The position numbers and the translations under genes were made by a program. A DNA stretch of 64,000 nt, taken from IMG/VR virus record IMGVR_UViG_3300025483_000873, one strand, 5' to 3'. The notes beneath the pieces were generated by a model. The model searched no databases and was not told the DNA's origin. It saw only the letters and a program-made list of their open reading frames with translations. This DNA comes from a virus. This document shows positions 3,048 to 23,967 of this stretch, piece by piece (position 1 is the stretch's first letter; every line of letters begins with the position of its first letter).

Positions 3048-3076
3048 TTGACACATCTAAATAGTTATGGTATACT
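3048..3076 (+). promoter_or_regulatory. sigma70 early promoter with embedded late-promoter core CTAAATA (3057-3063)
   Basis: TTGACA-17 bp-TATACT immediately upstream of the riboswitch-like element. Confidence 0.85.
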
Positions 3077-3084
3077 AATACCAT

Positions 3085-3125
3085 CGTTCATCCGAGAGAT
3101 CGGACGCAAGTAAGTCGCGGAACGG
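3085..3125 (+). ncRNA. glutamine-II (Downstream-peptide)-like riboswitch aptamer, copy 1
   Basis: P1 CGTTC/GAACG, linker A, hairpin TCCGA-GAGA-TCGGA, CGCA, GGAACGG; lies upstream of a YRG-motif peptide, the known context of this motif. Confidence 0.75.
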
Positions 3126-3512: not shown

Positions 3513-3529
3513 TCTACTTGTAAATAATC

Positions 3530-3555
3530 AGAGGGGTTGCACCCCCTCTTTTTTT
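3530..3555 (+). terminator. Rho-independent terminator
   Basis: AGAGGGG/CCCCTCT stem followed by a T run. Confidence 0.85.
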
Positions 3556-3607
3556 ATGCTAAAATACTAAAGGTATACAAAAGAATAAAAATGTGTTATA
3601 ATAACTT

Positions 3608-9548: not shown

Positions 9549-10219
9549 TACGTCACCATCTCCTTATCTGATTGTTTACCATAACCTTTGATGATACGTT
9601 TTGCTTTGATACGATCCTGATCTTTTTTAGAAATTTCATCCCATACAGATTCTTTATCGTATGCAATGTTACCGGATCCTTTTGTAATAACGAAGTCTTC
9701 AACAGGTAAGAAGATAGATGTCTCCCACTCATCTATAGCAAGATCCAAGAAAGGACTTTTACAATGTGTCTTTATATATTTATGTATGATTATCTTGGGT
9801 AGGTCAATGAATCCACGTTCTAGTTTCTGAATTACTTTAACTCTTGCTTTGGGTCTTAAGTAATGTAAATTAGCACCATAAAATTCATTGCCAAAGTCTT
9901 TTATTACATAGACTAATGGAAACTTATCGTAGTATGGTAGACTCTTTGTTTTTGCTTCGTACTCAAACAAATATAAGTGACCATCTCTTACTGTGGTCCG
10001 TAAAATATTTTCATCTTGTTGAGTATCATATCGATCACGTTTTTCGATTTCTAATACTCTTGGTGGTTCTGTTTTATATGTAGATGAAAGTGACTTTACC
10101 TTGTCCCTATACCAGGACACGGATTTTTTTTCTCCATTCGTTGCATCACTAACTTTTTCAAAGATAGTTTTATATGTATTAGAAGTTCCTCCGAACCCTT
10201 TACTTTTTGTTTTTGCCAT
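9548..10219 (-). CDS. gp2: DNA end protector gp2-like
   Basis: LYLFEYEAKTKSLPYYDKFPLV...GANLHYL. Confidence 0.8.
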   Translation of the reverse strand: MAKTKSKGFGGTSNTYKTIFEKVSDATNGEKKSVSWYRDKVKSLSSTYKTEPPRVLEIEKRDRYDTQQDENILRTTVRDGHLYLFEYEAKTKSLPYYDKFPLVYVIKDFGNEFYGANLHYLRPKARVKVIQKLERGFIDLPKIIIHKYIKTHCKSPFLDLAIDEWETSIFLPVEDFVITKGSGNIAYDKESVWDEISKKDQDRIKAKRIIKGYGKQSDKEMVT

Positions 10220-10664
10220 TAGATCTTCCTACTCCTAAATGATCTTCGGTAAGGATTAAAAATTTCATCTGTCTATCCTCACAAAAGTCTTCAGCAGCGT
10301 CCCATTTGGCACGGTTCTTCATAAATGTAAAGACTTCTTTTTTCCAAGCGACAGTTTTGCGTTTGGGTTTTTCATTAGGTGGTTGTGTTTGCTTTTTAGG
10401 TTTCACTTCAATAATATACTTTTGATATTTACCACTCCTGTCTTTTACTTTGATGTAAAAGTCTGGATAATATCTATGTACTCTTCCGTCAGTAGGACAC
10501 TTATAAGGAATGATTATTTCCTCACTACCCCACTCGATGATGCTACCATTATGATCACAGAAGAACATAAATTTACGCTCCCATAGCGAGCGGTAAATTA
10601 TTCTGGTTGGATTTCCTTTGTACTTCCGTGGGTTAGTTGGCTTATAAATGCCTGAATATGCCAT
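10200..10664 (-). CDS. gp4: head completion nuclease gp4
   Basis: YRSLWERKFM..CD...W.SEE..IPY...HRYYPDF...IEVKP. Confidence 0.92.
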   Translation of the reverse strand: MAYSGIYKPTNPRKYKGNPTRIIYRSLWERKFMFFCDHNGSIIEWGSEEIIIPYKCPTDGRVHRYYPDFYIKVKDRSGKYQKYIIEVKPKKQTQPPNEKPKRKTVAWKKEVFTFMKNRAKWDAAEDFCEDRQMKFLILTEDHLGVGRSNGKNKK

Positions 10665-10665
10665 G

Positions 10666-10698
10666 CTAAATATAGATGGACCAACTATTTTTATTTAG
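10666..10698. promoter_or_regulatory. pair of late promoters, CTAAATA on + (10666-10672) and on - (10692-10698)
   Basis: T4-type late promoter cores between gp4 and gp54. Confidence 0.7.
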
Positions 10699-10699
10699 C

Positions 10700-11377
10700 G
10701 TGTCATTAGATACTTTCATACAGGCTATTGCTAAACGTGGGGGAATGTCTTTCTCCAATGGATATGATGTTGAGTTCTATGATTTCTCAACGCGATTATC
10801 AAATAATCTTGGAGATTTCATTGGCGCAGGTGGAACTGGAGATGAAACCAAAGCGGCGGGATTAGTTCAGATGCTTTGTGATGAAGCACAACTTCCTAAT
10901 GTACAGGCAGCCGTAGGACAGTTGAGTGGTAGAGTTATGGGAGAAAGTCAGATTAGTTATCCATATGCCAGATTTTACAGTGATTTGTCACTCACATGGA
11001 TGTGTGATGCTGAAATGATACCACTCAAATTTCTTAATACATGGCACTCTTTTATTTTCAATGGAAACAATTCTTCTCAAGATGGTCCTAAACCATCTGC
11101 TGCAGGATTGAAAAATATCAAGCAAGCAACTCCAAATGAGTTTAATAGGGCGATTAGATTGAACTATCCCGTAGAGTATATGTGTAAGTTGAGAATTAGT
11201 AAGACTGAAAAGGGAGCTGGTGCTCCTAATGAGAGATCAGCAGTATCCTATATTATGGAGAATATTTATCCTTATTCTATTGATTCTATTCCTTTATCTT
11301 ATGGTACTTCCCAGATCACGAAGGTAACCGCTAACTTCTACTATCAAAAACATACTGTTGTACACAGTAGGGTATAG
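10700..11377 (+). CDS. gp54: baseplate-tail tube initiator (gp54-like)
   Basis: LCDEAQLP...YPYARFYSDLSLTW...PYSIDSIPLSYG..ITKVTANFYY; GTG start preferred over ATG 10676. Confidence 0.7.
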   Translation: MSLDTFIQAIAKRGGMSFSNGYDVEFYDFSTRLSNNLGDFIGAGGTGDETKAAGLVQMLCDEAQLPNVQAAVGQLSGRVMGESQISYPYARFYSDLSLTWMCDAEMIPLKFLNTWHSFIFNGNNSSQDGPKPSAAGLKNIKQATPNEFNRAIRLNYPVEYMCKLRISKTEKGAGAPNERSAVSYIMENIYPYSIDSIPLSYGTSQITKVTANFYYQKHTVVHSRV

Positions 11378-11456
11378 TAAATGAGGCAAATTTGACTTTT
11401 CAGTTACAAAAAAGTCGAAAAAAAATCGCCACCAAAAATTGACTCAAAAAGTCGAA

Positions 11457-11467
11457 CTAAATAAATA
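11457..11467 (+). promoter_or_regulatory. late promoter
   Basis: CTAAATAAATA upstream of gp26. Confidence 0.75.
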
Positions 11468-11489
11468 TACGATTTGAACTCACATATCA

Positions 11490-12203
11490 ATGGCATTACC
11501 AAAACTTGGCGTACCTACGTATGAACTTACGTTGCCTTCTACCGGGAAAACTGTAAAATATAGACCATTTCTCGTTAAAGAAGAAAAAGTACTACTTTTA
11601 GCATTAGAATCTGATAATGAAAAAGAAGTAATTACTGCTGTAAAGAACACACTGCGAGCATGTGTATTATCTAGAGTAAAAGTTGATCAACTACCATCAT
11701 TCGATCTGGAGTACCTATTTCTTAAGATTCGTGCTGCTGCTGTCGGTGAAGTTATCGAGATGACGGTAACTTGTAATGATGATAACGAAACTCAAGCAAA
11801 AGCATCAATCAATATTGATGAGGTTGAAGTGAAGAAAGATGATGAGCATAGTAGAAAGATTATGCTTACAGACGATATGGGGATTATGCTCAATTATCCA
11901 AGTATGGATAGATTTATTGAATCGCAGTTTCTCAACAAAGATTTAGATCCAGAGCATATTTTCAACTTTATTGCTGAACATATTGAGCAAATTTTTGATG
12001 GTGAAGATGTATATGATTCTACAACTACCACAAAGAAAGAGTTTCGTGAGTTTGTTGAGGGGTTGACTAGCAGACAGTTTGAAGAAATTCAAAAGTTCTA
12101 TGAGACTATGCCTCGCTTGACACACACATTTAGTGTGACCAATCCTAACACTGGTAATGAATGTGAGTATACTATTGAGGGATTGCAAAGTTTTTTCGCA
12201 TAG
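11490..12203 (+). CDS. gp26: baseplate hub subunit gp26
   Basis: MALPKL..PTYELTLPSTGK.VKYRPFLVKEEK...DLEYLFLKIRA...IEGLQSFF. Confidence 0.92.
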   Translation: MALPKLGVPTYELTLPSTGKTVKYRPFLVKEEKVLLLALESDNEKEVITAVKNTLRACVLSRVKVDQLPSFDLEYLFLKIRAAAVGEVIEMTVTCNDDNETQAKASINIDEVEVKKDDEHSRKIMLTDDMGIMLNYPSMDRFIESQFLNKDLDPEHIFNFIAEHIEQIFDGEDVYDSTTTTKKEFREFVEGLTSRQFEEIQKFYETMPRLTHTFSVTNPNTGNECEYTIEGLQSFFA

Positions 12204-12220
12204 CAGTCTTCCAGAATAGT

Positions 12221-12388
12221 TTGGAGGGCTATTACAAGACTAACTTTGCTTTGATGCAGTACCATAAATACTCTTTGACGGAGATTGAACACCTCATACC
12301 GTGGGAAAGAGAAGTTTATACTGCTCTTCTAATTCAACATATTCAAGAGGAAAAGAAAAAAGCAGAGGAAGCAAAGACTCGTAGATGA
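12221..12388 (+). CDS. gp51: short gp51-like baseplate hub assembly ORF (possibly made as a frameshift fusion with gp26)
   Basis: LEGYYKTNFALMQYHKYSLTEIEHLIPWEREVY; not in the ORF track; no clear SD/ATG start. Confidence 0.8.
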   Translation: MEGYYKTNFALMQYHKYSLTEIEHLIPWEREVYTALLIQHIQEEKKKAEEAKTRR

Positions 12389-15381
12389 ACTTCAACACCC
12401 CAGCACCAAAAGATATCGTAAGATGGTATAGGAAAGGTGTGCCTGGTGGCGGACAGAAGGATCGCATCTTTGATAGATTAAAAGCAAAGTTAACTGGCGG
12501 CACGGATGATAGTGGCACCAGTTATTTTTCTATGTTGGAGAAGAAACTCTCCGATAAAGATGCTGATATAATTATTAAGAATATGAAGACGGATATCGAT
12601 GGATATCCTATGCTTGAGACTGGTAGTACCAGTGGTGAGGATCAGAGAAGATATCAAGAATGGATTGTTGAGAGATATTTAAAAACAGCTGGTACAGAAG
12701 GATTTACTGATACATCTGTTGCTGCTCCTGATGATGAAGAAGAACAGAAAGAAGAGGTAGTAGAAGAAGAAGCAGAAGAGATTGTAGAGGAAGCAGAAGA
12801 AGAAGTAAAAGAGAACATTGAAGAAGCAGTTGAGGTAGTAGACGAAGTAATAGAAGAAGCAGATGTATCGGAAGAAACTGGCGATATATCAGACATTACC
12901 GATATTTTACCGCAATCATTTATCGATGCAGTAAATCAACAACAAGGAACAGATTATCAAAAGACAAAGAAATCTACTGGGGTATCAAACACCAAGATTT
13001 TATCAACACTTGTCGGATCATTACAAAAAATCCAAGGACAACTTGGTAGTATTGACAATGAACTGAAAAAGCAGAATGCTCTTATTGGTGCTGCGTTAGG
13101 GACCACTGTAAGCAATCTTAATCAGATTGAGACCAGTCATGATGGTCTTAATGATAGATTTGATGGTATTCTGGAAGCATTTGAAGCACAGACCGCATTA
13201 AAGAAAAAAGAACTTGATGATGCAGAAACTGCTGCTGCTATTGATGAACAAGACGATGTTCTTGATGCTGCAGGAACAGAGGGTATAGGTGGTAAAAAAG
13301 GTAAAAAAGGTAAAGAGGAAGGAGGATTATCAAAATATGTTGGTAGAATTGCCAAATGGTTATGGAAAAAGTTTGCTCCAAAATGGTTAAGGTCTCGTCT
13401 TCGTCTATTAAGGATGAAGTTTGGACCGAAAAATCTTAAGCGTAGAGCAGGTAACTTTTTAAATAGTCAGAAAAAAAGAGCGGGTGACTTTTTAGGTAAT
13501 CAAAAAGATAGATTTGGCGATGCTATCAATCGCAAGAAATCTGAAATTGGTGCCAAAATAGGGCAAGCAAAAGGAAAACTTGGTGATGCTATTACTGGCG
13601 CAAAAACTGGCGCAAAAAAACTTCTATCCGGTATAAAAGGTCAAATATCATCAAAAGCCAATTTTTTAAAAGGCAAAGGTGATGACTTATTAAAAGGTGG
13701 CAAAAATCTTGGTCAACGTGCCTTAAACAGTGGTAAAGGTTTAGTTGATAATGTAGGTAAATTTATGGCAAGCAAGGGTGCCAGAATTGGTGCCAAAGTT
13801 GGTGTTGCTACTGGTAAATATGGTGGTAGGATGATTCCTGCTGCTGGTATTGCTATTAGTGCTGCTGACGCTGTAGATCGTACAAAAAAAGGTGATAAAG
13901 TAGGTGCTTGGTTAGCAGGTCTTGGTGCTGCGTCTGGCACTGGTGCTGTTGTGACAGCTCCTGCTGCATTAAGTGGTGTTGGCGTTGCTGCTCCTGCTGC
14001 ATTTGAGGCAACTTCTGCTGTAGCAGATACAGCACTGTTAATATATGATATCTTTAATGCAGTTACTGATAGAGAGTTTGAGCAAGGCGGATTAACTAAA
14101 CCTGGACTGGCGATGTTGCATGGTACTGAAGCAATTATTCCTAAAGATGTCGCAGATACTAACTTATTGAGTCCTGTTGGTGGAGCATTGATTGGAGCAT
14201 CTGCTAACTTCTTGACACAAGCAGGACCAGCAGCATCTTTAGTTGCTCCTATGTTTAAGCAATCTGCTAACGCATTGACAAAGTTCTTTGATGTGCCTAC
14301 AACACTCGCACAGACAAATGTTGGTGGATCATTTGCTGGTATTGATACCACGATAAAAAATGTAAAGAAAAAATCAGAAGAAGAAAATAATGAAGACCCT
14401 GATGAGTTTGGACCCGAAGGTGGAACAGTAGAAGAAAAAATGCTCGATAAAATGAAGGGTGGGGTGACCGGATTCTTTGGTGGTATGCTAAAGTTATTTG
14501 GCATAAGAATGCCACCCGAAGTTGACGTTAATGATGATGATGGTAATGGTGGTAAATTTGGAGGAAATGGTAAGTTTATTCAGGGCAACTCTGGAGCGTC
14601 TGGTGGCATACATTATCATATTGGTCCTGGTAGTTATCAAGATGGAAATATTACCTCTTCAGCTGGTAATGCTGATGCAAGAGCAGTAGCAGAAAAAGTA
14701 GTTAAGCATTTCCAAGGTAAAAAGAGTATCTACATTGGTAGATTGGGGTACACTGTTAAAGAATCTGATACCCCAGCGATTATCAAAGAGAAAGTAAAAC
14801 GAGGACAGGAGGTACATAGTTCTGGTCGTGGGTCACAAGGTGGTATTGACTTGCAGATTGGTGGTGCATACTACCCTGGAGCAAAAGTTCCTTTCCCATT
14901 AAAAACTGAAGGTCTTAAGTATCGTACTGGAGGTTTTGGTGTAACTGCCAAAGTTTCTGGTTCAAATGCATTTGTAGCACATGGACTGTATGATGAAAAT
15001 GGTAAGCAAGCACCACAAGAAAGAACCAAAATGTATGGTGAAGGTGGTGATACTCCATCAGTACCAACAGAGATTATTGTTGGTGATAGAGGAAAAGAAA
15101 AGGTTATGAAAAACCTGGTTGCTTCTTTTAAACCAGTGTCTGATCTGCTTGATGCGTATAACGCATCAACTTCGACTGATGAGTTGATTGCTGCAACTAG
15201 AGCATATGCTCCTGAAGTTCTTATGTATGATGATGAAGAGGGTGGGATGGGACAACAGATTATTGTGGTAAATAATACACCACCTATGGCACCGATGCCT
15301 ATGGGTGGTGGTACTATAGTAACAAGAAAACCTACTACATCAGCATCAAAAACTTTACTGATGCAAAAACTATTTGCTTGA
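12385..15381 (+). CDS. tape-measure/gp29-like tail protein 1 with degenerate M23-peptidase-like segment
   Basis: 998 aa, low-complexity helical, follows gp26/51; H...GGIDL...GGFG...VAHGL segment near the C-terminus. Confidence 0.6.
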   Translation: MNFNTPAPKDIVRWYRKGVPGGGQKDRIFDRLKAKLTGGTDDSGTSYFSMLEKKLSDKDADIIIKNMKTDIDGYPMLETGSTSGEDQRRYQEWIVERYLKTAGTEGFTDTSVAAPDDEEEQKEEVVEEEAEEIVEEAEEEVKENIEEAVEVVDEVIEEADVSEETGDISDITDILPQSFIDAVNQQQGTDYQKTKKSTGVSNTKILSTLVGSLQKIQGQLGSIDNELKKQNALIGAALGTTVSNLNQIETSHDGLNDRFDGILEAFEAQTALKKKELDDAETAAAIDEQDDVLDAAGTEGIGGKKGKKGKEEGGLSKYVGRIAKWLWKKFAPKWLRSRLRLLRMKFGPKNLKRRAGNFLNSQKKRAGDFLGNQKDRFGDAINRKKSEIGAKIGQAKGKLGDAITGAKTGAKKLLSGIKGQISSKANFLKGKGDDLLKGGKNLGQRALNSGKGLVDNVGKFMASKGARIGAKVGVATGKYGGRMIPAAGIAISAADAVDRTKKGDKVGAWLAGLGAASGTGAVVTAPAALSGVGVAAPAAFEATSAVADTALLIYDIFNAVTDREFEQGGLTKPGLAMLHGTEAIIPKDVADTNLLSPVGGALIGASANFLTQAGPAASLVAPMFKQSANALTKFFDVPTTLAQTNVGGSFAGIDTTIKNVKKKSEEENNEDPDEFGPEGGTVEEKMLDKMKGGVTGFFGGMLKLFGIRMPPEVDVNDDDGNGGKFGGNGKFIQGNSGASGGIHYHIGPGSYQDGNITSSAGNADARAVAEKVVKHFQGKKSIYIGRLGYTVKESDTPAIIKEKVKRGQEVHSSGRGSQGGIDLQIGGAYYPGAKVPFPLKTEGLKYRTGGFGVTAKVSGSNAFVAHGLYDENGKQAPQERTKMYGEGGDTPSVPTEIIVGDRGKEKVMKNLVASFKPVSDLLDAYNASTSTDELIAATRAYAPEVLMYDDEEGGMGQQIIVVNNTPPMAPMPMGGGTIVTRKPTTSASKTLLMQKLFA

Positions 15382-15383
15382 AA

Positions 15384-15390
15384 ATAAATA
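15384..15390 (+). promoter_or_regulatory. late promoter
   Basis: ATAAATA in the intergenic gap. Confidence 0.6.
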
Positions 15391-15410
15391 AAGGCATAGA
15401 GGCATAACTA

Positions 15411-17957
15411 ATGGCAGCAGGAACAGAAGGCTTTAACGACACTTCTCAACCAGGAAAGGACCACATGGGGGCAATGATCTCCAAGGTTATTGCTGCGCGT
15501 AAATTTGCCAGACAAGAGAGAGAAGCAGCAGAAGAAAAGGCAAAGAAAGCAGGATATGATAGTTTAGATGAACTTGGTGTAGAAAAAGGATTCTTTTTCA
15601 AGGCAGCACTGAAGAGTAAGTTCGGTGGATCATACATCAGTGGTAAGAAGCAAGACATTCAACAGACAGTTGATCGTGTCAAACTGCTGAAGAATCCCAA
15701 GGCACAGTTCTGGAACTTTGTAGACAATAGAGGCGCTGACGGTAAAGAGATAAAGAAACTGTCTGAAGTTGAAAGATTTCGAGAACAGTTTGATAACTAT
15801 GCATTTGTAAGTGCCAAGAGAGCTCCTGAAAAGGTAGAATCATCCGAAGAGATGATACCTGATACGGCAGAAGAAACTGCATCATCAGCATCAGGAACTG
15901 GTAAGAGTAGAGTATCACGAGAAGATATTCTTACTGCAGTAAGTGCCATTGCATCATCACTTGAACAGACTGCACAGTCTATCAATAATACACTTGGCGA
16001 GACAAAGAATATTGCTAGTGACGTACAGGCAATCAAGACTGATGTTATTGCTCAATTGAGTGAAAGAACTGATACTATTGAAGCAAAGTTAGATGCTATT
16101 GCTGCTGCTATTAATGCACAGACAGAGTTACAAAAGAAAACTGCTGATGATAAACAAGGTGCTCAAAAAATGAGTGGTGGAGCAGCAGTTAAAAATGCTG
16201 CTGATAGTAGTGACTTTGATGATCTCTCGACTCCTGAAGATGAAGGTGAAGAATCAGATTTAGATACAGATAATATAGCAGATACACCTAGTCAAGAACC
16301 TGCTGCTGACGACCCCAACAAACCGCCAGAAGCAGAGACTGGCGGTATTATTTCTGGTCCTGATAGTGGTTATCTTGCCAAGTTACATGGCGATGAGATG
16401 GTTATTCCATTAGATAATAACTATACTCAAGGCGAACCAAGTGCGATGGATGGTAAGGTACGACCTGTACCGGAAACTCCTGCTATAAAATCTCCTGCTG
16501 TGGCACCTAAAAAGCAATCATTTGAGCAGGGAACATCTAACCTTGGTAGTAAGGTAGGATTTACTGATTTAAATCTTGGTATGGCATCGAAATCTAGTAG
16601 TGGTTCTGATGCTATGGCACAACCATTAATGGATGCAATGTCACTGCCTATGATGGTTGCTGGTGGTACAGTACTATCATCTGTTACCAACCTAATGAAT
16701 CAACTGGGACCAGAGAGTGATTCTTTTGCGGGTGAAATTGCCAAGGTAGCAAGACCTATCGCTGATGTATTTGGGTTGCCTAATAGTCTTGCTAATAAAG
16801 TAACAGGACAAAAGAGTAGTAAGGGCGATTCTGATATTAAAAAGAAAGATGATAAGAAAAAAGGATTCTTTAGTAACTTATTTGAAAAGTTGAAGAAAGT
16901 TTCTGGTGCCGGTGGTGGTGGCGGCGGCGGTGGCGGTGGCGGTGGATCTACTACTGGTGGTGGCGGCAGTGGTGGTAGTGCCTCTCAAAAGGAAGTGGCC
17001 GATGTGATGGGAGCAGAGTTTGAAAAACAAGGATTATCTGAAGAAGGTGCAAAACTTGCCTTGGCAGAAATAGGACGAGAGAATAGTTTAAGTAGATCTC
17101 TTATTCTTGGTACTCATGATGATGGCGGCAAGACTGCATATGGTGCTGTTAGTTGGCAAGGCGGTCGGGAAAAAGTATTGTTGGATGAGTTAAAAGCAAG
17201 GGGGATTGATCCAACAGTAGCAGGACTTGCTGGTAGTGGAGACGAAGGTCTTCGTGCAAATGCTGCTGCTATGGTAAAAGAAATTGCTGCCAGAGGTCAT
17301 ACAGAACTGTTAGATTTACTTAAGAAACCAAACCTCACCGATGCAGAAAAAGATAAGGTAAGACAACTATTTAAAGATGAATACTTTGTTTATAGCAAAA
17401 GTGTTCCATTACAAAGAAGTAGAGACTGGTATGAAACTGTTAGTAGGATGAGTCAAACTCCCCCATCAAGTACAGAAGACGGTATCATAGATTCTACAGA
17501 TTCTCCGGAATCTATGATACCTACAGATTCACAATTAATTACCCAGAACTTCGGAGCAAAGACAGGAGATAGAATACACTTTATGCATAATGGCAAAATG
17601 CATAATGCATATAAAACTACTAAAGGTTTTGCGTTGTTTTACCATAAGATGCCTATTGATACAAGCAATGGTAAAAATGCTGCTGTAGTTAAATCTTTTA
17701 TTAAAGAAGGTAAAAAACGATCAGGAATTAGTTCTCCAACTTCATCAGAAACACCTGGTCAGACACAAGCAGCACTACAGAAACCAGATAAAAATACTGG
17801 TGGGTCGGGTGCAACTCAAGTTGCTATGTTAAATACTTCTGCGGGGCAGCAACAATCTGCAGGCACGGATAAACCTCCAACACCAGAACAAACTGTTGTT
17901 AAAGAGGGTCACACTAATGATTTAACATCCATGTTTGCATCACCACTAGTAGGATAA
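15411..17957 (+). CDS. tape-measure/gp29-like tail protein 2 with tail-lysozyme-like domain
   Basis: 848 aa; GLSEEGAKLALAEIGRENS...YGAVSWQGGR resembles the phage tail lysozyme family; paralogous to the upstream gene. Confidence 0.6.
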   Translation: MAAGTEGFNDTSQPGKDHMGAMISKVIAARKFARQEREAAEEKAKKAGYDSLDELGVEKGFFFKAALKSKFGGSYISGKKQDIQQTVDRVKLLKNPKAQFWNFVDNRGADGKEIKKLSEVERFREQFDNYAFVSAKRAPEKVESSEEMIPDTAEETASSASGTGKSRVSREDILTAVSAIASSLEQTAQSINNTLGETKNIASDVQAIKTDVIAQLSERTDTIEAKLDAIAAAINAQTELQKKTADDKQGAQKMSGGAAVKNAADSSDFDDLSTPEDEGEESDLDTDNIADTPSQEPAADDPNKPPEAETGGIISGPDSGYLAKLHGDEMVIPLDNNYTQGEPSAMDGKVRPVPETPAIKSPAVAPKKQSFEQGTSNLGSKVGFTDLNLGMASKSSSGSDAMAQPLMDAMSLPMMVAGGTVLSSVTNLMNQLGPESDSFAGEIAKVARPIADVFGLPNSLANKVTGQKSSKGDSDIKKKDDKKKGFFSNLFEKLKKVSGAGGGGGGGGGGGGSTTGGGGSGGSASQKEVADVMGAEFEKQGLSEEGAKLALAEIGRENSLSRSLILGTHDDGGKTAYGAVSWQGGREKVLLDELKARGIDPTVAGLAGSGDEGLRANAAAMVKEIAARGHTELLDLLKKPNLTDAEKDKVRQLFKDEYFVYSKSVPLQRSRDWYETVSRMSQTPPSSTEDGIIDSTDSPESMIPTDSQLITQNFGAKTGDRIHFMHNGKMHNAYKTTKGFALFYHKMPIDTSNGKNAAVVKSFIKEGKKRSGISSPTSSETPGQTQAALQKPDKNTGGSGATQVAMLNTSAGQQQSAGTDKPPTPEQTVVKEGHTNDLTSMFASPLVG

Positions 17958-17958
17958 T

Positions 17959-19371
17959 ATGGCACAAGAAGATTTACAATATGCTTCCAGTTTTAAACCA
18001 AAGAAAGTAACTATTACTTCTGTCAGTGGTGATGAGAAAGTCATCACCGATTTAGTGCAGAACTTTTATTACTTTGAGAATATCACAATGCCTACTCTTG
18101 AGGCTATTGCTGTTATTTCTGACTCTGGTGGAAACCTGATTGCAAGTCTTCCTATTCAGGGGTATGAAGATATCGAGATCATTCTTGAAGGACAAGATGA
18201 AGAAGAGATTGTATATAACTTTAAGGTGTATCGAGTCTTTGATAGATTCAGTGCGGATAGAGTACAAGTATACAAACTTGGTATGATATCTAAAGAGGCA
18301 TTGATTAACGAGACAATCAGATTACCTAAACTATTGACAGGTAAACCTGATGCTATTGTTAGTAGTTTGTTGAAAGAAAACTTATCTACAGAGAAAGAAA
18401 TTAAGACAGATCCGACACTATTTAAAGTTAGATTTCATCCAGGAAAGAAGACTCCTTTTTCAATCATTAACGGACTGTTACAAAAAACAGTAGCACAAGA
18501 TGCAAATAATAGTAGTACTGCATCAGGCGGTGGTGCTGGTGGTGGAACGGATGGACAAGGTGGTGTTGCTGACATAAACTCTGGTTCTTACGGTAAGATG
18601 AGTGGCAGTGCCGGATACTTATTCTATGAGAACTATGATGGATATAATTTTAACTCTATTGATAGATTAAACTCTCTTGAGAAAAATCCTCCAGTTATAC
18701 AACTCTATCAAGAGAATAATGAACTTGGACAATCTAAATTAAATAAGATTTTATCTATTGATTTTAAACAAGAGATTGATATGCTCACCAAGTTGAGAAT
18801 GGGAACATTCTCTTCCGTAGTATGTTTCTATAACTACAGCACAGGTTCTTATGAAGAGTTTGCATTTTCATTAAAAGATTCGTTTAAAGATCAGAGTCAT
18901 CTTGGTTCTCAATCTGGTTTGTTGAAAGGTCAATCTGATTTAGCATCTAAACCAACAAGAATCATGTCAGCATTGATTGATCATGAAACTTGGTTTAATG
19001 AAAAAGAAATCGCATCTCCAGAGAAAAAAGATGGTGGTAGTAATGCTGCCGAGTTCCCTGACTGGCAGAAGAGTTATATTTCCCAGTCTATTTCTCGGAT
19101 GAATAGTATTAATAATCAAGAAGCAAAGATTACTATTCCATTGCATCCTGAACTCAAGGTAGGACAAACAGTTGAGATTTTTATTCCTAATATGATTGCC
19201 ACACCTGACAGAAAAGAAGAACCATATGATCCAGAACATAGTGGTGTGTATCTGATTTCTAAACTGAATCACGCTTATGATTTCAAGAATATTAAAGGTA
19301 ATACCCATCTTACGTTGATTCGTGATTCTTATGGTCGAAGAGATGAAGATTCAAAGGCAGAAACTGCCTAA
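17959..19371 (+). CDS. baseplate hub protein (gp27-like)
   Basis: Position before gp5; YLFYENYDGYNF.S.D.L and SG.YLI.KL.H.Y motifs typical of hub proteins. Confidence 0.65.
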   Translation: MAQEDLQYASSFKPKKVTITSVSGDEKVITDLVQNFYYFENITMPTLEAIAVISDSGGNLIASLPIQGYEDIEIILEGQDEEEIVYNFKVYRVFDRFSADRVQVYKLGMISKEALINETIRLPKLLTGKPDAIVSSLLKENLSTEKEIKTDPTLFKVRFHPGKKTPFSIINGLLQKTVAQDANNSSTASGGGAGGGTDGQGGVADINSGSYGKMSGSAGYLFYENYDGYNFNSIDRLNSLEKNPPVIQLYQENNELGQSKLNKILSIDFKQEIDMLTKLRMGTFSSVVCFYNYSTGSYEEFAFSLKDSFKDQSHLGSQSGLLKGQSDLASKPTRIMSALIDHETWFNEKEIASPEKKDGGSNAAEFPDWQKSYISQSISRMNSINNQEAKITIPLHPELKVGQTVEIFIPNMIATPDRKEEPYDPEHSGVYLISKLNHAYDFKNIKGNTHLTLIRDSYGRRDEDSKAETA

Positions 19372-19377
19372 TAAATA
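19371..19377 (+). promoter_or_regulatory. late promoter
   Basis: ATAAATA upstream of gp5. Confidence 0.65.
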
Positions 19378-19397
19378 ATACGTAACTGCTGTTTGAT

Positions 19398-22300
19398 ATG
19401 GATCCCGTATTATCATCATTAATGCAGACTCATCAGGTTGGTGAAGATGGATTTCATTGGTGGATTGGTCAGGTTGAAACATCTAATACTGATGACCCAA
19501 AAGAGTCTGGAAGGTATCGTGTTAGAATTATAGGACATAACCTAAAGGACGCTACTCCTACCAAGGATTTGCCTTGGGCACAAGTAATGTTACCAGTTAC
19601 GACACCATTTAGTGACGGTGGCGTTACGGGTGCGACCGTAGAACTACGTGCAGGTAACTGGGTAACTGGATTCTTCCTTGATAATGATAAGCAAAAGCCA
19701 ATCATTATGGGATCGATTGGTCACACTGCTGGTGCGACTGAAGTAAAACTTGATGAACCACAAGACTCTGGTGAAGGTAAAGGATTAGTTACCTATACAG
19801 ATCCAAAAACTAAATCACAGGCACATCGTTCACAAGATAGACAAGGTGGTGTAGACGAAGAAACTGGTGGTAATACAGATGGTGGTGAACCTGATGCTGC
19901 TCGTGCTAATCTAGAGGATGGTGCTCCCGCTATCATCGCTGCATTACGTGGTAAGCACAGTGAAGCAAACCCTATTGGAATGAAGACTTGTGTTACCCTT
20001 GCTAACCCTACTTGCGGTACGGAGAGTAACTTCGGCAAGCAACTGACTAACATCGTGGGTGATATGTTGGCAGCAAACCAGGCATCTGGTGGTCAACTTG
20101 GAAGTTTTTATGTCAGTAAAGTAAATGGATTCTTGTATGATAAAGTAGCGATTGCTCGTTATCATATTGGTAGAGTTACAAGACTTGTAAGAAGTCTTGT
20201 CGGTAGGATTCAGTCAGAAATCATTAGAAAAATTCGTGAAGGTATTGAATTTTTAGTTAAAGCAGCACTGGGTCTCAACGTACCAGAAGAGCAGAAAGAA
20301 AAAGTACCTGTAGATCCAAAATCAGATTTTGATACCGTTAGACCTAAAGGTAATGTCTTAAAAAGAATCAAGAAAGTACTTGATCAAATCTTACAAGCAT
20401 TAGGTTGTGCTATTGAAGATTTAATTGATAAGTTGGTAAGTTGGTTGACTGACTTGCTGTTTGATTTTATTATGGAGATTTTCTCTCCAGCAGCATGTGC
20501 GATCAAGAATATGATTGATGGTATTCTTAATCAGATCCTGTCGTTGATTGATGGATTGATAGCACAAGTTCTGGGACCTATACAACAAATTTTATCTCTT
20601 ATTGGGGGTTCTGTTGACCTAGTATCATCAGCAATCCAAAAGGTAATGTCTTTCCTCGGCATCAACTGCAGTGGACCGAGTTCAAAGTGTTCTGGTAGCA
20701 CAAAAGAATGTAATGATTGTGGCACTGATGATGATGATGAAGATTTCCTTGATAACCTATTGAAAGATATTGAAGCAGGTGATACCGGAGAGCGTTTGGA
20801 TTGTCCGGAATCTTTAGATTATTTGGATCCGGAACCAACTAAAGTTATTTTTGTTGGTGGTGTTCCTACTTGGAATCCTCCGGAGATTCCTACCGGTGGT
20901 TCTAAACCACCTGGAAATCAATTCCCTGGCGAAGAGACTCCTGATAACTTCTTCCCGTCAACAGCAGACGATCCTTCAAATGATCCTAATATCATTCCGC
21001 AGTTTCCTGATGATGATGATGATGACTTCTTCCCTGACGGACCTGGCACGGTGCCAGATGGTACTTTTCCTGATGATGATGACGCTAATGATATAGTTGG
21101 TGAAGATGGTGAACCTGATCTGCCAAGAGATGCTGGTGGCACCCCATATTACACTGTAGTAGCTGACCCAACGTTTGTTACTGAAAGTGATATCATCACG
21201 TATACTGTTAGAACATCTAACGTACCTATTGGTACTATTCTTAAGTATAGATTGTCTGGCGATACTATTGTTCCTGAATATATTGTTGGTGAGTCTTTAA
21301 CTGGAGATTTTGTTATCAACGAAATTGAAACTGTCACTGAAGATGTTGTTGATGATGATGGTAATCTTGTACCAGTAGAAATCCCTCTTGGTATTGGTGT
21401 AATAACAGTACAACTTGCTGCGGATGATGTGTTGACATCTACCTATCAAGAAATGTTCTTCACTGTCATTGATGCCTCTGATGTAGATACTGATGCTGTT
21501 GCACAAGTTACTATTACTTATGATGCATATGGTTTAATCAATCCATTCTACAATCCAAATACAGTACCTACAGAGACTGTTTCTGTAGTATCAGACAAAG
21601 AACTATATTATGAAGGTGAAGATATTGTTTACACTATCACGTCAGAAAATATTCCTGATGGCACGGTGTTAGAATATATTCTGTATGGAGACATCTCTCC
21701 AGATGATATTGTTCAAGATTCTACATCCGGTTCATTTGTTATCAGAGATAATGCTTCTAAAGTTACAGTTGGTATTATTGAAGATCTTCAAGAAGAATTT
21801 GACGAGAAGGTGTACTTCAAAGTAGTAGGTTACGATGCGTTCACTGATGCAACTATTGTAGGAACTGCTGTTGTTGATGATGGTACATCAACAGAAGAAG
21901 TCCGAGTTGAGTTAACGAAACCAACAGTATATCCTCCTATTACTGATGATAGTGGCGGTATTATTAGTATTCCCGTCAAGGATGCTGGCGATTCTTATTT
22001 AGAAGCACCAAAAGTTATTATTAGTTCTGGAAATGGTTTTGGTGCAACTGCTATTGCACTATTAGATACTAGAGGATATGTATCAGAGATTAGAGTTACT
22101 AGAAAAGGACTTGGGTACAAAGTAAACACTCCTAAATCTAATGGACTAGAATGTATCATTGACTCATTTACTTTGATTGCTCCTGGCATTAGATATAGTA
22201 AAACTCCAACCGTATACATAAATGGTGAGGAAGGAATTGCTCAAGCAATTATTGATCCGAGAGGATATGTGATTAGTATACAGATCCTTGACAGAACTGT

Positions 22301-22451
22301 AAAATACACAGAAGCGCCCAAAGTAAAAATTATTGGTGGTGGCGGAAGTGGAGCAGTTGCTCTACCGAATATGGTGTGTCTTGATCCTGATGACCTCACT
22401 ACAGTAGGATCTGTTAAGATTGGAACCGGTAAATATATTGATTGCCCATAA
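19398..22451 (+). CDS. gp5: gp5-like baseplate hub, N-terminal OB-fold part with long accessory domains
   Basis: VGEDGFHWWIGQVE...GRYRVRIIG...LPWAQVMLP...V.GFFLD...QKPIIMGSI. Confidence 0.88.
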   Translation: MDPVLSSLMQTHQVGEDGFHWWIGQVETSNTDDPKESGRYRVRIIGHNLKDATPTKDLPWAQVMLPVTTPFSDGGVTGATVELRAGNWVTGFFLDNDKQKPIIMGSIGHTAGATEVKLDEPQDSGEGKGLVTYTDPKTKSQAHRSQDRQGGVDEETGGNTDGGEPDAARANLEDGAPAIIAALRGKHSEANPIGMKTCVTLANPTCGTESNFGKQLTNIVGDMLAANQASGGQLGSFYVSKVNGFLYDKVAIARYHIGRVTRLVRSLVGRIQSEIIRKIREGIEFLVKAALGLNVPEEQKEKVPVDPKSDFDTVRPKGNVLKRIKKVLDQILQALGCAIEDLIDKLVSWLTDLLFDFIMEIFSPAACAIKNMIDGILNQILSLIDGLIAQVLGPIQQILSLIGGSVDLVSSAIQKVMSFLGINCSGPSSKCSGSTKECNDCGTDDDDEDFLDNLLKDIEAGDTGERLDCPESLDYLDPEPTKVIFVGGVPTWNPPEIPTGGSKPPGNQFPGEETPDNFFPSTADDPSNDPNIIPQFPDDDDDDFFPDGPGTVPDGTFPDDDDANDIVGEDGEPDLPRDAGGTPYYTVVADPTFVTESDIITYTVRTSNVPIGTILKYRLSGDTIVPEYIVGESLTGDFVINEIETVTEDVVDDDGNLVPVEIPLGIGVITVQLAADDVLTSTYQEMFFTVIDASDVDTDAVAQVTITYDAYGLINPFYNPNTVPTETVSVVSDKELYYEGEDIVYTITSENIPDGTVLEYILYGDISPDDIVQDSTSGSFVIRDNASKVTVGIIEDLQEEFDEKVYFKVVGYDAFTDATIVGTAVVDDGTSTEEVRVELTKPTVYPPITDDSGGIISIPVKDAGDSYLEAPKVIISSGNGFGATAIALLDTRGYVSEIRVTRKGLGYKVNTPKSNGLECIIDSFTLIAPGIRYSKTPTVYINGEEGIAQAIIDPRGYVISIQILDRTVKYTEAPKVKIIGGGGSGAVALPNMVCLDPDDLTTVGSVKIGTGKYIDCP

Positions 22452-23569
22452 TGAGTAACGTACACAATAAAACAGATACTGTTAAACCATCCGCTGGTGC
22501 TGCTGGTGTTGCTGCCGAGGGTGGTGCTGCAGAACCTCAAGCAAGGAAGGATACTGCAGATACAGAACAGTTTTGTGCAGTAAAACCAACAGTGCATTGG
22601 GTTTCCAATGGTTGGACTTGTATGGATTGGGAAGGTGATGACAACACTCCTGGTGGATACACTGTTACCAATGGTCAGAGTGCTTTGTTCTTTGATGAAA
22701 CCGGTAATATGGTATTCACCACAGGACTTCCCTCTCAAGCAGGTTGTGGTGGTAAACTGATATTCAGTAGTGCAGGACAAATGCACAACGTATCAGGACC
22801 AATCTCTATTCAGTCTAAAGGTCCAAAAGATGCTACAAGGTCTGCTGATAGCAGTAGTAGAGGTGAATCTACTAAAGAATCTCATGCGTATTCTGTTTAT
22901 GCAGAGGGAAAGGTTGCTATTGAAGCACAGGGAGAATCTTGTGACTTAAAAGGTGATAACATCACTATTAATGCTCTTAAAACATTAACACTTAAAGCAG
23001 GAGAAGCAGTTAACATCGAAGTTGGTGATGGTAACGGTAAGATGAGCATCTTCACGGGTGACTACAATCTTAATACATCATTCAACAACAAAACTATTGG
23101 TAGTGCTGACTACACTGATGGTGCTGGCGAAAAAACACTGAATACTACGCAACCAGGATCAGTTGAAGCTACCAATAGTATTGGAACTATCAACCGTACT
23201 ATTAAGGGTAACTATTATCTTGGTGTGGCGGGTCACTACAACCTTCAGGCACTTTCTAATATCAACTTAAAGTCAACTACAGGTGGATATGGTTTATCGA
23301 CCACTGGCAGTCACTATCTTTTTGCAGGAGGAACAAAGACGGAAGAGATTGCTGGTATTGTTCCTGCTATTGGAGACAAACCACCTGTTGTAGGTGCATG
23401 TTGGGACTTAAAACTAGGACCAGGCAAGCAATCATTCTCGGCAAAGATGGCAAGCGGTGTTCAAATTCTTTCTACTCTTGGTGTGAACAAGATTACTATG
23501 GCGGGGGTAACATCCGCAACGTTTGCTGGTACACTTACTGTAAAAGCGATTACGATTTTCTTGAATTGA
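22451..23569 (+). CDS. gp5 C-terminal beta-helix/needle protein
   Basis: TAATG coupling to gp5-N; beta-strand repeats; ends ...LTVKAITIFLN like gp5/VgrG spikes. Confidence 0.7.
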   Translation: MSNVHNKTDTVKPSAGAAGVAAEGGAAEPQARKDTADTEQFCAVKPTVHWVSNGWTCMDWEGDDNTPGGYTVTNGQSALFFDETGNMVFTTGLPSQAGCGGKLIFSSAGQMHNVSGPISIQSKGPKDATRSADSSSRGESTKESHAYSVYAEGKVAIEAQGESCDLKGDNITINALKTLTLKAGEAVNIEVGDGNGKMSIFTGDYNLNTSFNNKTIGSADYTDGAGEKTLNTTQPGSVEATNSIGTINRTIKGNYYLGVAGHYNLQALSNINLKSTTGGYGLSTTGSHYLFAGGTKTEEIAGIVPAIGDKPPVVGACWDLKLGPGKQSFSAKMASGVQILSTLGVNKITMAGVTSATFAGTLTVKAITIFLN

Positions 23570-23652
23570 ATACATAAATACCGAAAAAAAATCGCCTGTA
23601 AAAAATAGCAGAAAAAGTCGCTCTAAATAACAGTGGTGGAACGGATTCTTTA

Positions 23653-23967
23653 ATGTTATCTACGCAATATAGACTACGACTGGAATTTATTTGTAAATGT
23701 ATCTCAAACAATGAAGATGTAAAACTAGATGATATGATCTGGGCGCAGAAACTTGCCAAAGCAAATACATCTGCTAATGAGATGTTAAAAATGGCAAGAC
23801 GCCAAGCATCCCAAAACATTGAAGAGGGTAGCACAGACGATTTTCTGAATAGGATGGGTTTAGGAGATCCCGATCCATCCAACCACAAAAAGGGATTTAC
23901 TGATGCTGATGATATGCTAGAATGGTTCCAGCAAGATAAACCTGATGACTGGAGGCAAAGGGATTAA
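23653..23967 (+). CDS. conserved cyanophage hypothetical protein
   Basis: MLSTQYRLRLEFICKCI...; preceded by CTAAATA (23623-23629). Confidence 0.75.
   Translation: MLSTQYRLRLEFICKCISNNEDVKLDDMIWAQKLAKANTSANEMLKMARRQASQNIEEGSTDDFLNRMGLGDPDPSNHKKGFTDADDMLEWFQQDKPDDWRQRD

Follow-up and report, generated by a model that had tools for sequence, protein, structure and literature searches.

The 64-kb stretch of virus DNA analysed here in full (the window, to which all coordinates refer) belongs to a T4-like cyanomyovirus, whose closest named relative is S-CAM3, and carries two copies of an A-tract element next to genes of the baseplate hub (Table 1). Copy 1, at 11416-11463, reads CG-A8-TCGCC-acc-AAAAATT-gactc-AAAAAGTCG-aa-CTAAATA, and copy 2, at 23582-23629, reads CG-A8-TCGCC-tgt-AAAAAAT-agcag-AAAAAGTCG-ct-CTAAATA. 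Both 48-nt copies proved to be letter-exact as described in an earlier sequence-only reading, with identical spacing between the blocks and different spacer bases, and the gene context given there was also right, with gp26 (PF12322) after copy 1 and gp5 (Gp5_OB) followed by the phrog_4540 gene before copy 2. The additional features ascribed to copy 1, namely, a second AAAAAGTCG and the inverted repeat GACTTTT (11394-11400)/AAAAGTC (11410-11416), were confirmed as well.

Table 1. Features of the two element copies and of the adjoining genes, in window coordinates.
Feature	Interval	Strand	Basis or remark
Tail-tube-like gene	10676..11377	+	Stop codon precedes copy 1; mosaic versus the nearest relative up to the element edge
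5' box of copy 1, AAATTTGACTTTTCAGTTAC	11386..11407	+	Begins 9 nt past the stop codon of the tail-tube-like gene
Extra AAAAAGTCG unit, copy 1 only	11409..11417	+	Local hairpin with GACTTTT
Copy 1 block 1, CG-A8-T-CGCC	11416..11430	+	AnTm tract, G/C clamps
Copy 1 block 2, AAAAATT	11434..11440	+	A5T2, A6T1 or inverse A2T5/AT6 in relatives
Copy 1 block 3, AAAAAGTCG	11446..11454	+	Sequence reading and alignment
Copy 1 putative late promoter CTAAATA (11457-11463) with overlapping ATAAATA (11461-11467)	11457..11467	+	Motif, conservation
gp26, baseplate hub gene, downstream of copy 1	11490..12203	+	PF12322, E=2.7e-70
gp5	19398..22451		Gp5_OB
Second gp5-like hub/lysozyme gene	22442..23569	+	phrog_4540; stop codon 12 nt upstream of copy 2
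Copy 2 block 1, CG-A8-T-CGCC	23582..23596	+	Sequence reading and alignment
Copy 2 block 2, AAAAAAT	23600..23606	+	Sequence reading and alignment
Copy 2 block 3, AAAAAGTCG	23612..23620	+	Sequence reading
Copy 2 putative late promoter CTAAATA	23623..23629	+	Motif
104-aa gene, function not known, downstream of copy 2	23653..23967	+	phrog_507; homologue of S-CAM 'gp136'

The pair of copies exceeds chance. An nhmmer profile made from relatives alone, with the lineage of the window excluded, recovered both of them from the 64 kb (11386-11455 with E=3.8e-15 and 23566-23622 with E=1.9e-6), the next match having E=1.3, and two sub-patterns of the element gave no further match in the window at <=3 mismatches. 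The true unit exceeds 48 nt: copy 1 begins at about 11386 with a 5' box, which is conserved in about 35 family members and whose GACTTTT is complementary to the AAAAGTC boxes, while copy 2 is devoid of this box through a 14-nt deletion relative to the S-CAM-type copies. The hairpin folding of copy 1 has a minimum free energy of -11.3 kcal/mol (z=-3.07).

Judging from an alignment of 42 sequences, near gap-free across about 70 nt, the two 48-nt stretches are paralogous copies of an oriented intergenic cassette of about 70 nt, which belongs to one clade of T4-like cyanomyoviruses (Kyanoviridae). In the 5' to 3' direction the cassette comprises the stop codon of the upstream gene, the 5' box with the sequence AAAATTGACTTTTCAATTAC, block 1 with A(4-9)T(1-6) between G/C clamps, block 2, which is an AnTm tract of 7 nt that may run in either orientation, block 3 with the pattern A(4-7)G(G/T)T(C/T)G (a GTCG box) and, mostly, a promoter. 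All copies examined share the coding strand of their preceding gene, and each lies directly 3' of it, within about 25 nt of the gene end, this gene being a tRNA for the Syn9 16076 copy. Before gp26 the cassette is kept in S-CAM1, S-CAM3, S-RSM4 and about 15 IMG/VR metagenomic loci, and after gp5 in S-CAM1, S-CAM3, S-PM2 and about 20 such loci. There are 2-6 copies per genome in S-CAM1, S-CAM3, S-PM2, S-RSM4, Syn9 (about three) and P-HM2, mostly at the borders of core modules; some of them abut a start codon (S-PM2 p210 and p219, G001 87736, Syn9 16076 and 53564, and four P-HM2 copies), and others face a convergent gene or a terminator (Syn9 3035, S-RSM4 192697 and L171). The cassette is absent at about 60 of 80 more distant gp26 loci, and P-SSM2 and P-TIM40 gave zero cassette matches. 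The expectation that the motif should be uncommon and retained by relatives with the same gene order stood for its rarity (two per 64 kb, 2-6 per genome) and for close relatives, and failed for most distant relatives that keep the gp26 context.

The view that the element brackets the hub operon could not be upheld, since in S-PM2 the operon itself contains a copy, next to the start of p210, and gp26 is not preceded by one, a Syn9 copy lies before gp5, and further copies occupy unrelated borders. The hub genes are flanked by cassettes because two borders between transcription units happen to lie there, and not because the two copies have a function as a pair.

Late promoters of the T4 type, which depend on gp55, gp33 and gp45, occur as TATAAATA, as NATAAATA in cyanophages and as CTAAATA in Aeh1 (PMC2984593, PMC1524935); the core TATAAATA or an accepted variant (NATAAATA; CTAAATA from -12) was used here as the criterion, together with a location some 20-40 nt upstream of a late (virion) gene that relatives also keep. 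The statement that no standard annotation explains the element was wrong for its last block, which corresponds to the late promoter itself (PMC2984593, PMC1524935): because of this published work and of its conservation, the CTAAATA of both window copies is taken to be a gp55-type late promoter. Of the 80 gp26 loci, the great majority have an NTAAATA or close variant about 25-40 nt upstream of the ATG (by-eye count). The predicted transcription start of copy 1 is at about 11469, 21 nt upstream of the gp26 ATG, with CTAAATA ending 27 nt before this codon; that of copy 2 is at about 23635, 18 nt upstream of the ATG at 23653, with CTAAATA ending 24 nt before it. More generally, about four fifths of the copies in the 42-sequence alignment (by-eye tally) have a promoter, either the NATAAATA late motif or TTGACA-N17-TAnnnT, that begins 0-7 nt past block 3. 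The description of the element as a conserved and oriented cis-element adjoining late promoters is sustained.

The type of this promoter is exchangeable at one and the same site (the window versus L139, L142 and S-CAM). At the site of the copy 2 CTAAATA, most relatives have TTGACA-N17-TATAAT instead, as found after gp5 in S-CAM1, S-CAM3, S-PM2 and the loci L139-L157. These sigma70 promoters of the relatives have the block 3 A-run at about -47 to -41 and, further upstream, block 2 at about -59 to -52, while relative to the late starts of the window it is block 1 that lies at about -51 to -43, late promoters having no -35 box. The blocks are about 24 bp nearer the start site at late than at sigma70 promoters, and the cassette is therefore without a single geometry. 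In three copies a promoter-like motif is found upstream of the cassette, which would consequently be transcribed there as a leader.

A bent A-tract was defined as a tract of the AnTm type without a TpA step. The suggestion of bent DNA in the sequence-only reading received support, in that the three A/T blocks obey the AnTm rule and both copies rank high in predicted curvature, which an approximate wedge-model estimate puts at 55.5 degrees per 30 bp in copy 1 (99.9th percentile of the window) and at 49.7 degrees in copy 2 (99.5th percentile). Block 1 is strictly AnTm in 11 of the 15 distinct variants and has an AnTm core in all 15, the AnTm share among A/T runs of similar length in the window being 5.8%. 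Block 2 alternates between A5T2/A6T1 and the reverse-complement A2T5/AT6, which fits a groove or shape readout and not an RNA sequence readout. From centre to centre, successive A-tracts are separated by 11.5, 15 and 11 bp, with no clean helical phasing.

The anticipated breakpoints between relatives were indeed located at or within the element. Thus, the locus L139 combines a window-type 5' half with an S-CAM-type 3' half, the breakpoint being inside the cassette; a promoter and the gp135 gene directly past block 3 are present in some relatives and absent in others; and the comparison with the nearest relative, G001, gave an identity that is patchy in the gene preceding the cassette, where it falls to about 43%, amounts to 59% over the 50 nt just ahead of the cassette, and is 100% from the cassette edge onward. 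The swapping of the hub module as such was not seen, the hub and its flanks being about equally diverged from S-CAM3 (69-78% identity). The conserved cassette sequence appears, therefore, to be also a seam for the exchange of promoters and neighbouring genes.

The part of the cassette upstream of the promoter most likely works at the DNA level. The reading we prefer, tentatively and with somewhat less than even confidence, is that the cassette represents a DNA-level curved, UP-like module of a composite cassette similar to the PeSL (promoter-early stem-loop) cassettes, and a recombination seam as well. A rigid, intrinsically bent A-tract array would supply UP-element-like contacts or curvature to the promoter at its 3' end, and the same upstream module would serve whichever promoter class adjoins block 3. 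Cyanomyoviruses are devoid of alt, modA and modB (PMC2984593), and the alpha subunit of RNA polymerase would therefore stay unmodified throughout infection.

Several observations are at odds with the UP-like role. Some copies have no 3' promoter, their neighbours being start codons, convergent genes or terminators, and three have the upstream promoter-like motif; there is neither a single block-to-start geometry nor a clean helical phasing. The UP-like role also leaves unexplained the complementarity of the 5' and 3' boxes (p=0.003) and the strong hairpins of some lineages (z about -5).

It is improbable, if worth weighing, that the cassette itself is a promoter without a -35 box, in which block 2 (nAWWWWT) would be the -10-like element and the RNA would start in the A-run of block 3. 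The block 1 palindrome would then be an activator site or a sigma contact, and the window copies would be tandem promoters, the cassette promoter plus the late CTAAATA, similar to the tandem early/late promoters described in RB49, S-PM2 and Syn9 (PMC2984593). The genes on both sides of the cassette in P-HM2 share their temporal class, Mid C or Late D (PMC5082946 supplementary file 3), which argues against such an independent start, as do the copies at convergent ends, which would yield antisense or tiny RNAs only. Positions -11 and -7 can be filled by A and T, respectively, in all block 2 variants; however, the block occurs as both A5T2 and A2T5 and matches TATAAT poorly. The size of about 70 bp with fixed spacing and orientation does resemble an RNA polymerase footprint, and at least nine copies stand 2-25 nt upstream of a start codon with no other recognisable promoter between, against which are to be set the low copy number and the lack of copies in P-TIM40 and P-SSM2.

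An abundant early-gene regulatory element was reportedly described in Syn9 and P-TIM40 by Doron in 2016. The cassette was considered as this element and rejected, because its copy number is low (about three in Syn9) and both P-TIM40, with 0 matches, and P-SSM2 are without it; in P-HM2, the genes that follow it belong to the middle or late classes.

The notion that the cassette acts as RNA is likewise doubtful. In this reading the transcript would fold into a dyad-symmetric hairpin, in a 3'-UTR or between cistrons, with the 5' box pairing with block 3 around a block 1 hairpin. Such a fold might reduce or stop read-through, or govern the processing or stability of the mRNA, before the following transcription unit, and would form the stem-loop half of a PeSL-like cassette. 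The position of every copy within about 25 nt of the end of the preceding gene (a tRNA at Syn9 16076) and of some copies between convergent genes or ahead of a canonical terminator is compatible with this, and the plus strand folds slightly better than the minus in 30 of the 42 sequences; in P-HM2, however, no change of temporal class occurs across the cassette. Cognate 5' and 3' boxes are more complementary than permuted pairs (p=0.003), with paired changes (GACTTTT/AAAAGTC versus GACCTT/AAGGTC) and G-U wobbles, yet some cognate pairs are worse than non-cognate ones, e.g., in the S-CAM1 copy before gp26. The folds of L063-L073 reach -19 to -22 kcal/mol (z about -5), and their inner hairpin GCGGGAAA..TTTCCCGC, followed by TATTTTTT, has the form of a canonical intrinsic terminator. 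In contrast, copy 2 and its lineage lack the 5' box and have no structure (z about 0), with blocks 1-3 still conserved; the energy of the block 1 hairpin spans 0 to -13 kcal/mol, so its stability is not conserved; and block 2 is A-rich in half of the copies, which leaves no U-tract there. An intrinsic terminator, i.e., a GC-rich hairpin with a U-run on the transcribed strand, was found in L063-L073 and in neither window copy, and the window phage has canonical GC-rich terminators elsewhere, e.g., near 3527-3556.

Even less probable is that a dedicated trans-acting protein, encoded by the phage or the host, docks on the cassette, its specificity drifting from genome to genome. If true, this would explain why the copies within S-PM2, S-RSM4 or Syn9 are more alike than those at the same site elsewhere, and would mean that a handful of sites per genome is marked for a process independent of the neighbouring promoter, such as origin firing, sliding-clamp loading for late transcription or insulation between transcription units.

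The more specific form of this idea, a platform unrelated to the adjacent promoter (an iteron origin, a clamp- or helicase-loading site or a recombination site) with repeated A(5-8)-N-T-C-G units as the binding words, has a still smaller chance, and the clamp-loading or origin role put forward earlier was not supported. Copy 1 has four direct repeats A(5-8)NT(C/G)(G/A), with spacing kept across genera, but the units are unevenly spaced (10, 16 and 12 nt). The few copies per genome may be compared with the about five origins of T4 (PMC3016281), and one copy is at the end of the gp5 module, T4 oriE being in the 3' part of gene 5; oriE, however, depends on an early transcript that is antisense and lies within gene 5, and an antisense promoter was not noticed here. 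The within-genome copies of the more distant S-PM2, S-RSM4 and Syn9 are 72-87% alike versus 64-69% for same-site copies elsewhere, which a co-evolving factor could cause and gene conversion explains equally well. The pattern scan of the genome collection gave no cyanobacterial record, so nothing suggests a host-factor site, and Syn9 without block 1 of its post-gp6 copy is still a viable phage (PMC8776855 supplementary primers).

That the upstream part is functionless, a decaying terminator or promoter remnant alike by descent and occasional gene conversion, is scarcely credible, despite the absence of the cassette in most distant relatives with the same gene order, the loss of the 5' box in copy 2 and the viability of the Syn9 mutant deleted in one copy, in view of the gap-free alignment across several genera with gp26 proteins only 55-70% identical, the AnTm rule and fixed spacing that hold despite variable spacer bases, and the identical blocks of the window copies with differing spacers.

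T4-like cyanophages are among the most abundant viruses of the ocean, yet of their control signals no more than an outline is known, comprising sigma70-like promoters, late promoters of the NATAAATA type and a single early element that has been reported. The cassette, compact and non-coding, has persisted in several genera, combines with promoters of both classes and has a sequence in keeping with the rules of bent DNA. Should it boost or insulate transcription, we would learn from it how the phages tune the expression of the baseplate hub, how they use a host alpha subunit that, unlike in T4, is not ADP-ribosylated, and at which places they exchange gene modules. The cassette also offers a ready-made part for the genetics of cyanophages and Synechococcus, and the existing Syn9 mutant without block 1 of one copy brings the question within experimental reach.

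Among the known systems, T4 oriE has iterons in the 3' part of gene 5 and an antisense early transcript (PMC3016281). The cassette resembles it in occupying few sites per genome and in having short direct repeats close to where the gene 5 module ends, but is intergenic, while oriE is inside gene 5. An origin of the oriE type, for which evenly spaced iterons and an early promoter of an antisense primer RNA were required, was rejected, the cassette repeats being unevenly spaced and no antisense promoter having been noticed on reading both copies and their flanks. To the late promoter of the T4 type correspond the CTAAATA as the last block and its location 24-27 nt before the start codon, as at most gp26 loci of the relatives; ordinary late promoters of the window (e.g., 25443, 47768 and 53349), in contrast, have no A-tract cassette upstream. 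Curved DNA upstream of the cyanobacterial psbA2, as far as the account given in a later paper goes (Asayama 2002, via PMC5931967), resembles the cassette in its several AnTm tracts before a promoter, the predicted curvature of the cassette being in the top 0.1-0.5% of the window. The cassette differs in its tract spacing of 11-15 bp, not a clean 10-11 bp, and in being a phage element kept as a sequence family, beyond mere base composition.

As the mark of an UP element we took A/T tracts within about -38 to -59 at a sigma70 promoter; a consensus of its subsites was reportedly established by Estrem in 1998/1999. The A-tracts immediately upstream of the -35 box after gp5 in S-CAM1, S-CAM3, S-PM2 and about 15 loci resemble it. 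Early promoters of the T4 type are reported to carry an UP-like, A-rich stretch at -40 to -44 (Nolan 2006, PMC1524935). Unlike the UP element, the cassette is far longer, its three or four tracts being accompanied by G/C clamps that are conserved; it is also joined to late promoters, with the register displaced by about 24 bp, and some copies are promoterless.

The PeSL cassettes have been described in the T4-type phages RB49/phi1, T4/PST and KVP40/nt-1 (Arbiol 2010 PMC2839356; Comeau 2014 PMC4122927), in papers that do not include cyanophages (PMC2839356, PMC4122927). They differ from the cassette in having a sigma70 early promoter, while the window copies carry one of the putative gp55 late type, interchangeable at one site; in occurring by dozens in hyperplastic regions, against 2-6 per genome at core-module borders; and in a GGGG..CCCC stem-loop, that of the cassette being A/T-tract based and weak or absent in the window (two small hairpins in copy 1, z=-3.1; none in copy 2, z about 0). 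The cassette agrees with them in the composite intergenic unit of about 70-100 bp, running from an upstream stop codon through an AT-rich region to SD/ATG, in the dyad or stem-loop followed by a promoter, and in a conserved sequence that marks gene-content differences between relatives (the L139 breakpoint, gp135 and the mosaic upstream gene). The A-tract module is most likely a variant of the control cassettes already known in T4-type phages, and the whole unit would be a cyanophage counterpart of their composite PeSL cassettes.

The window belongs to a T4-like cyanomyovirus, with a hub region that shares ~77% nucleotide identity with Synechococcus phage S-CAM3 over ~72% of its length and with a near-identical relative in the IMG/VR contig G001. 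The gene context of both A-tract copies, copy 1 before gp26 and copy 2 after the gp5 module, was confirmed with Pfam and PHROGs (table below). The two 48-nt elements described in the sequence-only reading match the window letters exactly, and outside the two copies neither half-pattern matches the window again when up to three mismatches are allowed. A profile built from relatives alone, the window's own lineage being left out, matched the window at 11386-11455 (E=3.8e-15) and 23566-23622 (E=1.9e-6), with no further match there below E=1; the two-copy observation is confirmed and far from chance. Alignment of the orthologous places across relatives extended the 48 nt to a unit of ~70 nt, here called the cassette, which comprises the stop codon of the upstream gene, a 5' box (AAAATTGACTTTTCAATTAC), block 1 (A(4-9)T(1-6) flanked by G/C clamps), a 3-nt spacer, block 2 (AnTm, 7 nt), a 5-nt spacer and block 3 (A(4-7)G(G/T)T(C/T)G). 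The alignment of 42 distinct copies is almost gap-free; in the window, a 14-nt deletion has removed the 5' box from copy 2. No Rfam family was found at either copy, only tRNAs attaining the gathering score in the window.

Genes and cassette copies in the hub region of the window
Feature	Position	Strand	Assignment
Tail-tube-like gene (PF23849)	10676-11377	+	Pfam/PHROGs
Copy 1 (48-nt element)	11416-11463		
gp26	11490-12203		Pfam/PHROGs
Four large hub/tail genes	between gp26 and gp5		Pfam/PHROGs
gp5	19398-22451		Pfam/PHROGs
Second gp5-like gene	22442-23569		Pfam/PHROGs
Copy 2 (48-nt element)	23582-23629		
104-aa gene, function unknown (phrog_507, gp136-like)	23653-23967		Pfam/PHROGs

Late promoters of cyanomyoviruses have the form NATAAATA (PMC2984593), and the T4-like phage Aeh1 has CTAAATA, beginning at -12, as its late consensus (PMC1524935). 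The CTAAATA of copy 1 ends 27 nt ahead of the gp26 ATG and that of copy 2 ends 24 nt ahead of the ATG at 23653, and further CTAAATA sites in the window precede other genes; NTAAATA or a close variant stands at the same distance in the great majority of 80 IMG/VR gp26 loci, counted by eye. From the published consensus and this conservation, the last block of both copies is a late promoter, and the earlier statement that no standard annotation explains the element was wrong for that block. Two back-to-back CTAAATA motifs, 10666-10672 (+) and 10692-10698 (-), also lie at the 11-nt gap that separates gene 10200-10664 (-) from its divergent neighbour 10676-11377 (+). As only 3 nt stand between the end of the plus-strand motif and the annotated ATG, either this start codon or the promoter call may be mistaken. 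At 3520-3560, a canonical GC-rich intrinsic terminator (AGAGGGGTTGCACCCCCTCTTTTTTT) shows that the same phage employs ordinary terminators elsewhere.

The cassette occurs before gp26 in S-CAM1, S-CAM3, S-RSM4 and 15 metagenomic loci, and after the gp5 module in S-CAM1, S-CAM3, S-PM2 and 20 loci, while the more distant gp26 loci, about 60 of the 80, carry the late promoter only. Whole-genome scans gave two copies each in S-CAM1 and S-CAM3, three in S-PM2, three to four in S-RSM4, about three in Syn9, about six in P-HM2 (some partial) and zero in P-SSM2 and P-TIM40. The cassette is a composite control unit specific to one clade. G001 carries a third copy (C1:19915-19983; L031 1501-1569), ~200 nt ahead of the point that corresponds to window position 1. 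This copy follows an 89-aa ORF and precedes, at ~45 nt, a TTATAAT -10-like box and then a small gene; an equivalent copy probably exists in the window's own genome, just beyond the window. A degenerate cassette pattern, scanned against 185,579 prokaryote genomes, gave four matches, two of them coding sequence in Pelagibacter single-cell assemblies, and a host origin of the motif was rejected, as none of the four fell in a record titled cyanobacterium. One match (L171, CAZUBV010000117.1, 319-355) is a clear family member with a canonical terminator (AGGGGGGCGAAAGCCCTCCTTTTTT) after it; its 4.6-kb contig was binned as Flavobacteriaceae and is probably a mis-binned cyanophage contig.

This distribution contradicts the proposal that the copies bracket the hub operon. 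In S-PM2 no copy precedes gp26, and the copies lie instead inside the operon (before p210), after gp5 and before p219; Syn9 has one copy between tRNA-Val and gp5 and another between the convergent gp6 and gp7. In S-RSM4 one copy, adjoining g53, occupies the same convergent junction (L039, NC_013085 192650-192740, minus strand); directly 3' of it, inside the g53 3' end, lies a perfect 10-bp hairpin (CATCAACCAG..CTGGTTGATG), a candidate for a bidirectional terminator or small antisense RNA. Nor is there a sign of the hub being swapped as a module, as had been suggested, since the hub runs collinear with S-CAM3 just as its flanks do, and both have diverged from it to a similar degree (69-78% identity).

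A by-eye tally found a promoter starting 0-7 nt past block 3 in some four fifths of the aligned copies; it is always of the late type before gp26, and after gp5 it is in most relatives TTGACA-N17-TATAAT, followed by a gp135-like gene. In the window, G001 and three further loci (L140, L141, L150), CTAAATA directly follows the gp5-side cassette, and an intermediate form with both promoters, TTGACA-N17-TATAAT and then CTAAATA ahead of the phrog_507 gene, is found in L142 and L143. Compared with S-CAM3 (L001 15511-15907), the window at 23569-23653 is without the sigma70 promoter and the gp135-like gene, which in S-CAM1 and S-CAM3 stand between the cassette and the phrog_507 gene. In the relative L139, the left half of the cassette is as in the window and the right half is of the S-CAM type, which places one breakpoint inside the cassette. 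Between the window and G001, identity is patchy, down to ~43%, across the gene upstream of copy 1, and amounts to 59% over the last 50 nt before the cassette versus 100% from the cassette edge onward. The exchanged promoters and genes, together with these breakpoints, indicate that the cassette acts as a seam for its neighbours. The tail-tube-like gene itself (10700-11400) is mosaic relative to G001, with patches of 43-59% identity (10750-10850, 11050-11250, 11350-11399) in surroundings of 90-100%, a pattern that suggests repeated exchange within the gene.

The form of the blocks speaks for a role at the DNA level. Of 15 distinct block 1 variants, 11 are strictly AnTm and all have an AnTm core; only 5.8% of the window A/T runs of 7-10 nt take this form. 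Block 2 switches among copies between A5T2/A6T1 and the reverse complements A2T5/AT6, which have the same groove shape and bending and are different as RNA. The AnTm tracts agree with the suggestion of bent DNA, and by a wedge-model estimate the predicted curvature of copies 1 and 2 would rank at the 99.9th and 99.5th percentiles within the window. At the sigma70 promoters, the block 3 A-run spans about -47 to -41, and block 2 about -59 to -52, and UP-like A-rich stretches have been reported at such upstream positions in T4-type early promoters (PMC1524935); at the window late promoters, block 1 falls at about -51 to -43. The genes alt, modA and modB are absent from cyanomyoviruses (PMC2984593), so that contacts of the alpha subunit, which would be left unmodified by the phage, could persist late in infection. 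The A-tract body would bend DNA or give UP-like contacts upstream of whichever promoter is joined to it, and its reading as a bent, UP-like upstream module combined with a recombination seam is tentatively preferred, at somewhat under even probability.

A pure upstream module fits poorly with several features. At least nine copies abut a start codon without an intervening promoter, three are preceded by a promoter-like motif, and a convergent gene or terminator faces three. Such start-codon copies would suit an independent promoter, which is nonetheless unlikely: in P-HM2, no change of temporal class is seen across the cassette, the genes on its two sides being both Mid C or both Late D (PMC5082946 supplementary file 3), which argues against an early promoter and equally against a strong terminator. 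The cassette as an RNA hairpin is likewise doubtful. The 5' box is complementary to block 3, with paired changes and G-U wobbles as well as some counter-examples, and cognate pairs beat permuted ones (p=0.003); duplex energies were permuted instead of scoring fixed-column covariation, since in the MAFFT alignment the 5' box and the palindrome centre are out of register by 1 nt between sub-families. The cassette of sub-clade L063-L073 forms a long hairpin (-19 to -22 kcal/mol) with an inner stem and T-run resembling a canonical terminator, and in the window copy 1 folds into two small hairpins only (z=-3.1) and copy 2 into none. A conserved stem between blocks 1 and 2 was rejected, cognate and permuted pairs being equal (p=0.57). 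Over longer distances, copies inside one genome resemble each other more than same-site copies elsewhere (85-87% within S-PM2 versus 64-69%), a sign of either gene conversion or a co-evolving factor. That the cassette is an origin or a dedicated protein site is improbable. By eye, no convincing match to NtcA, PhoB Pho box, RpaB HLR1, IHF or LexA sites was seen in the cassette.

A mutant of one copy is already published. In Syn9-delta6.5, 14 bp just before TCCCGCCAAAAATTAGGT were replaced (PMC8776855 supplementary primers), which in the Syn9 sequence are the block 1 A-tract of the copy after gp6 (NC_008296 ~3035-3105; L041, L158). The phage was isolated as viable (PMC8776855), and one copy is therefore dispensable for plaque formation; that the cassette is a relic is the least probable reading of all. 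The existing mutant makes transcript analysis of the cassette possible. The annotated 60-aa gp7 of Syn9 overlaps the cassette 3' part and may not be a real gene.

Among known elements, an early-gene element of T4-like cyanophages was reportedly described by Doron in 2016; identity with it is ruled out by copy number, by zero matches in P-TIM40 and P-SSM2, and by the P-HM2 genes downstream of the cassette, which are of middle or late class. An internal sigma70 promoter was also rejected, TTGACT-N17-TAAATA being confined to the window and S-CAM copies before gp26 and not family-wide. The closest known kind are the promoter-early stem-loop (PeSL) cassettes of T4-type phages, laid out as stop codon, AT-rich region, stem-loop, promoter and SD/ATG (PMC2839356). 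However, two of their defining features are missing, namely the sigma70 promoter, absent from the window copies, and a high copy number, while the behaviour of the cassette as a seam agrees with the PeSL description (PMC2839356).
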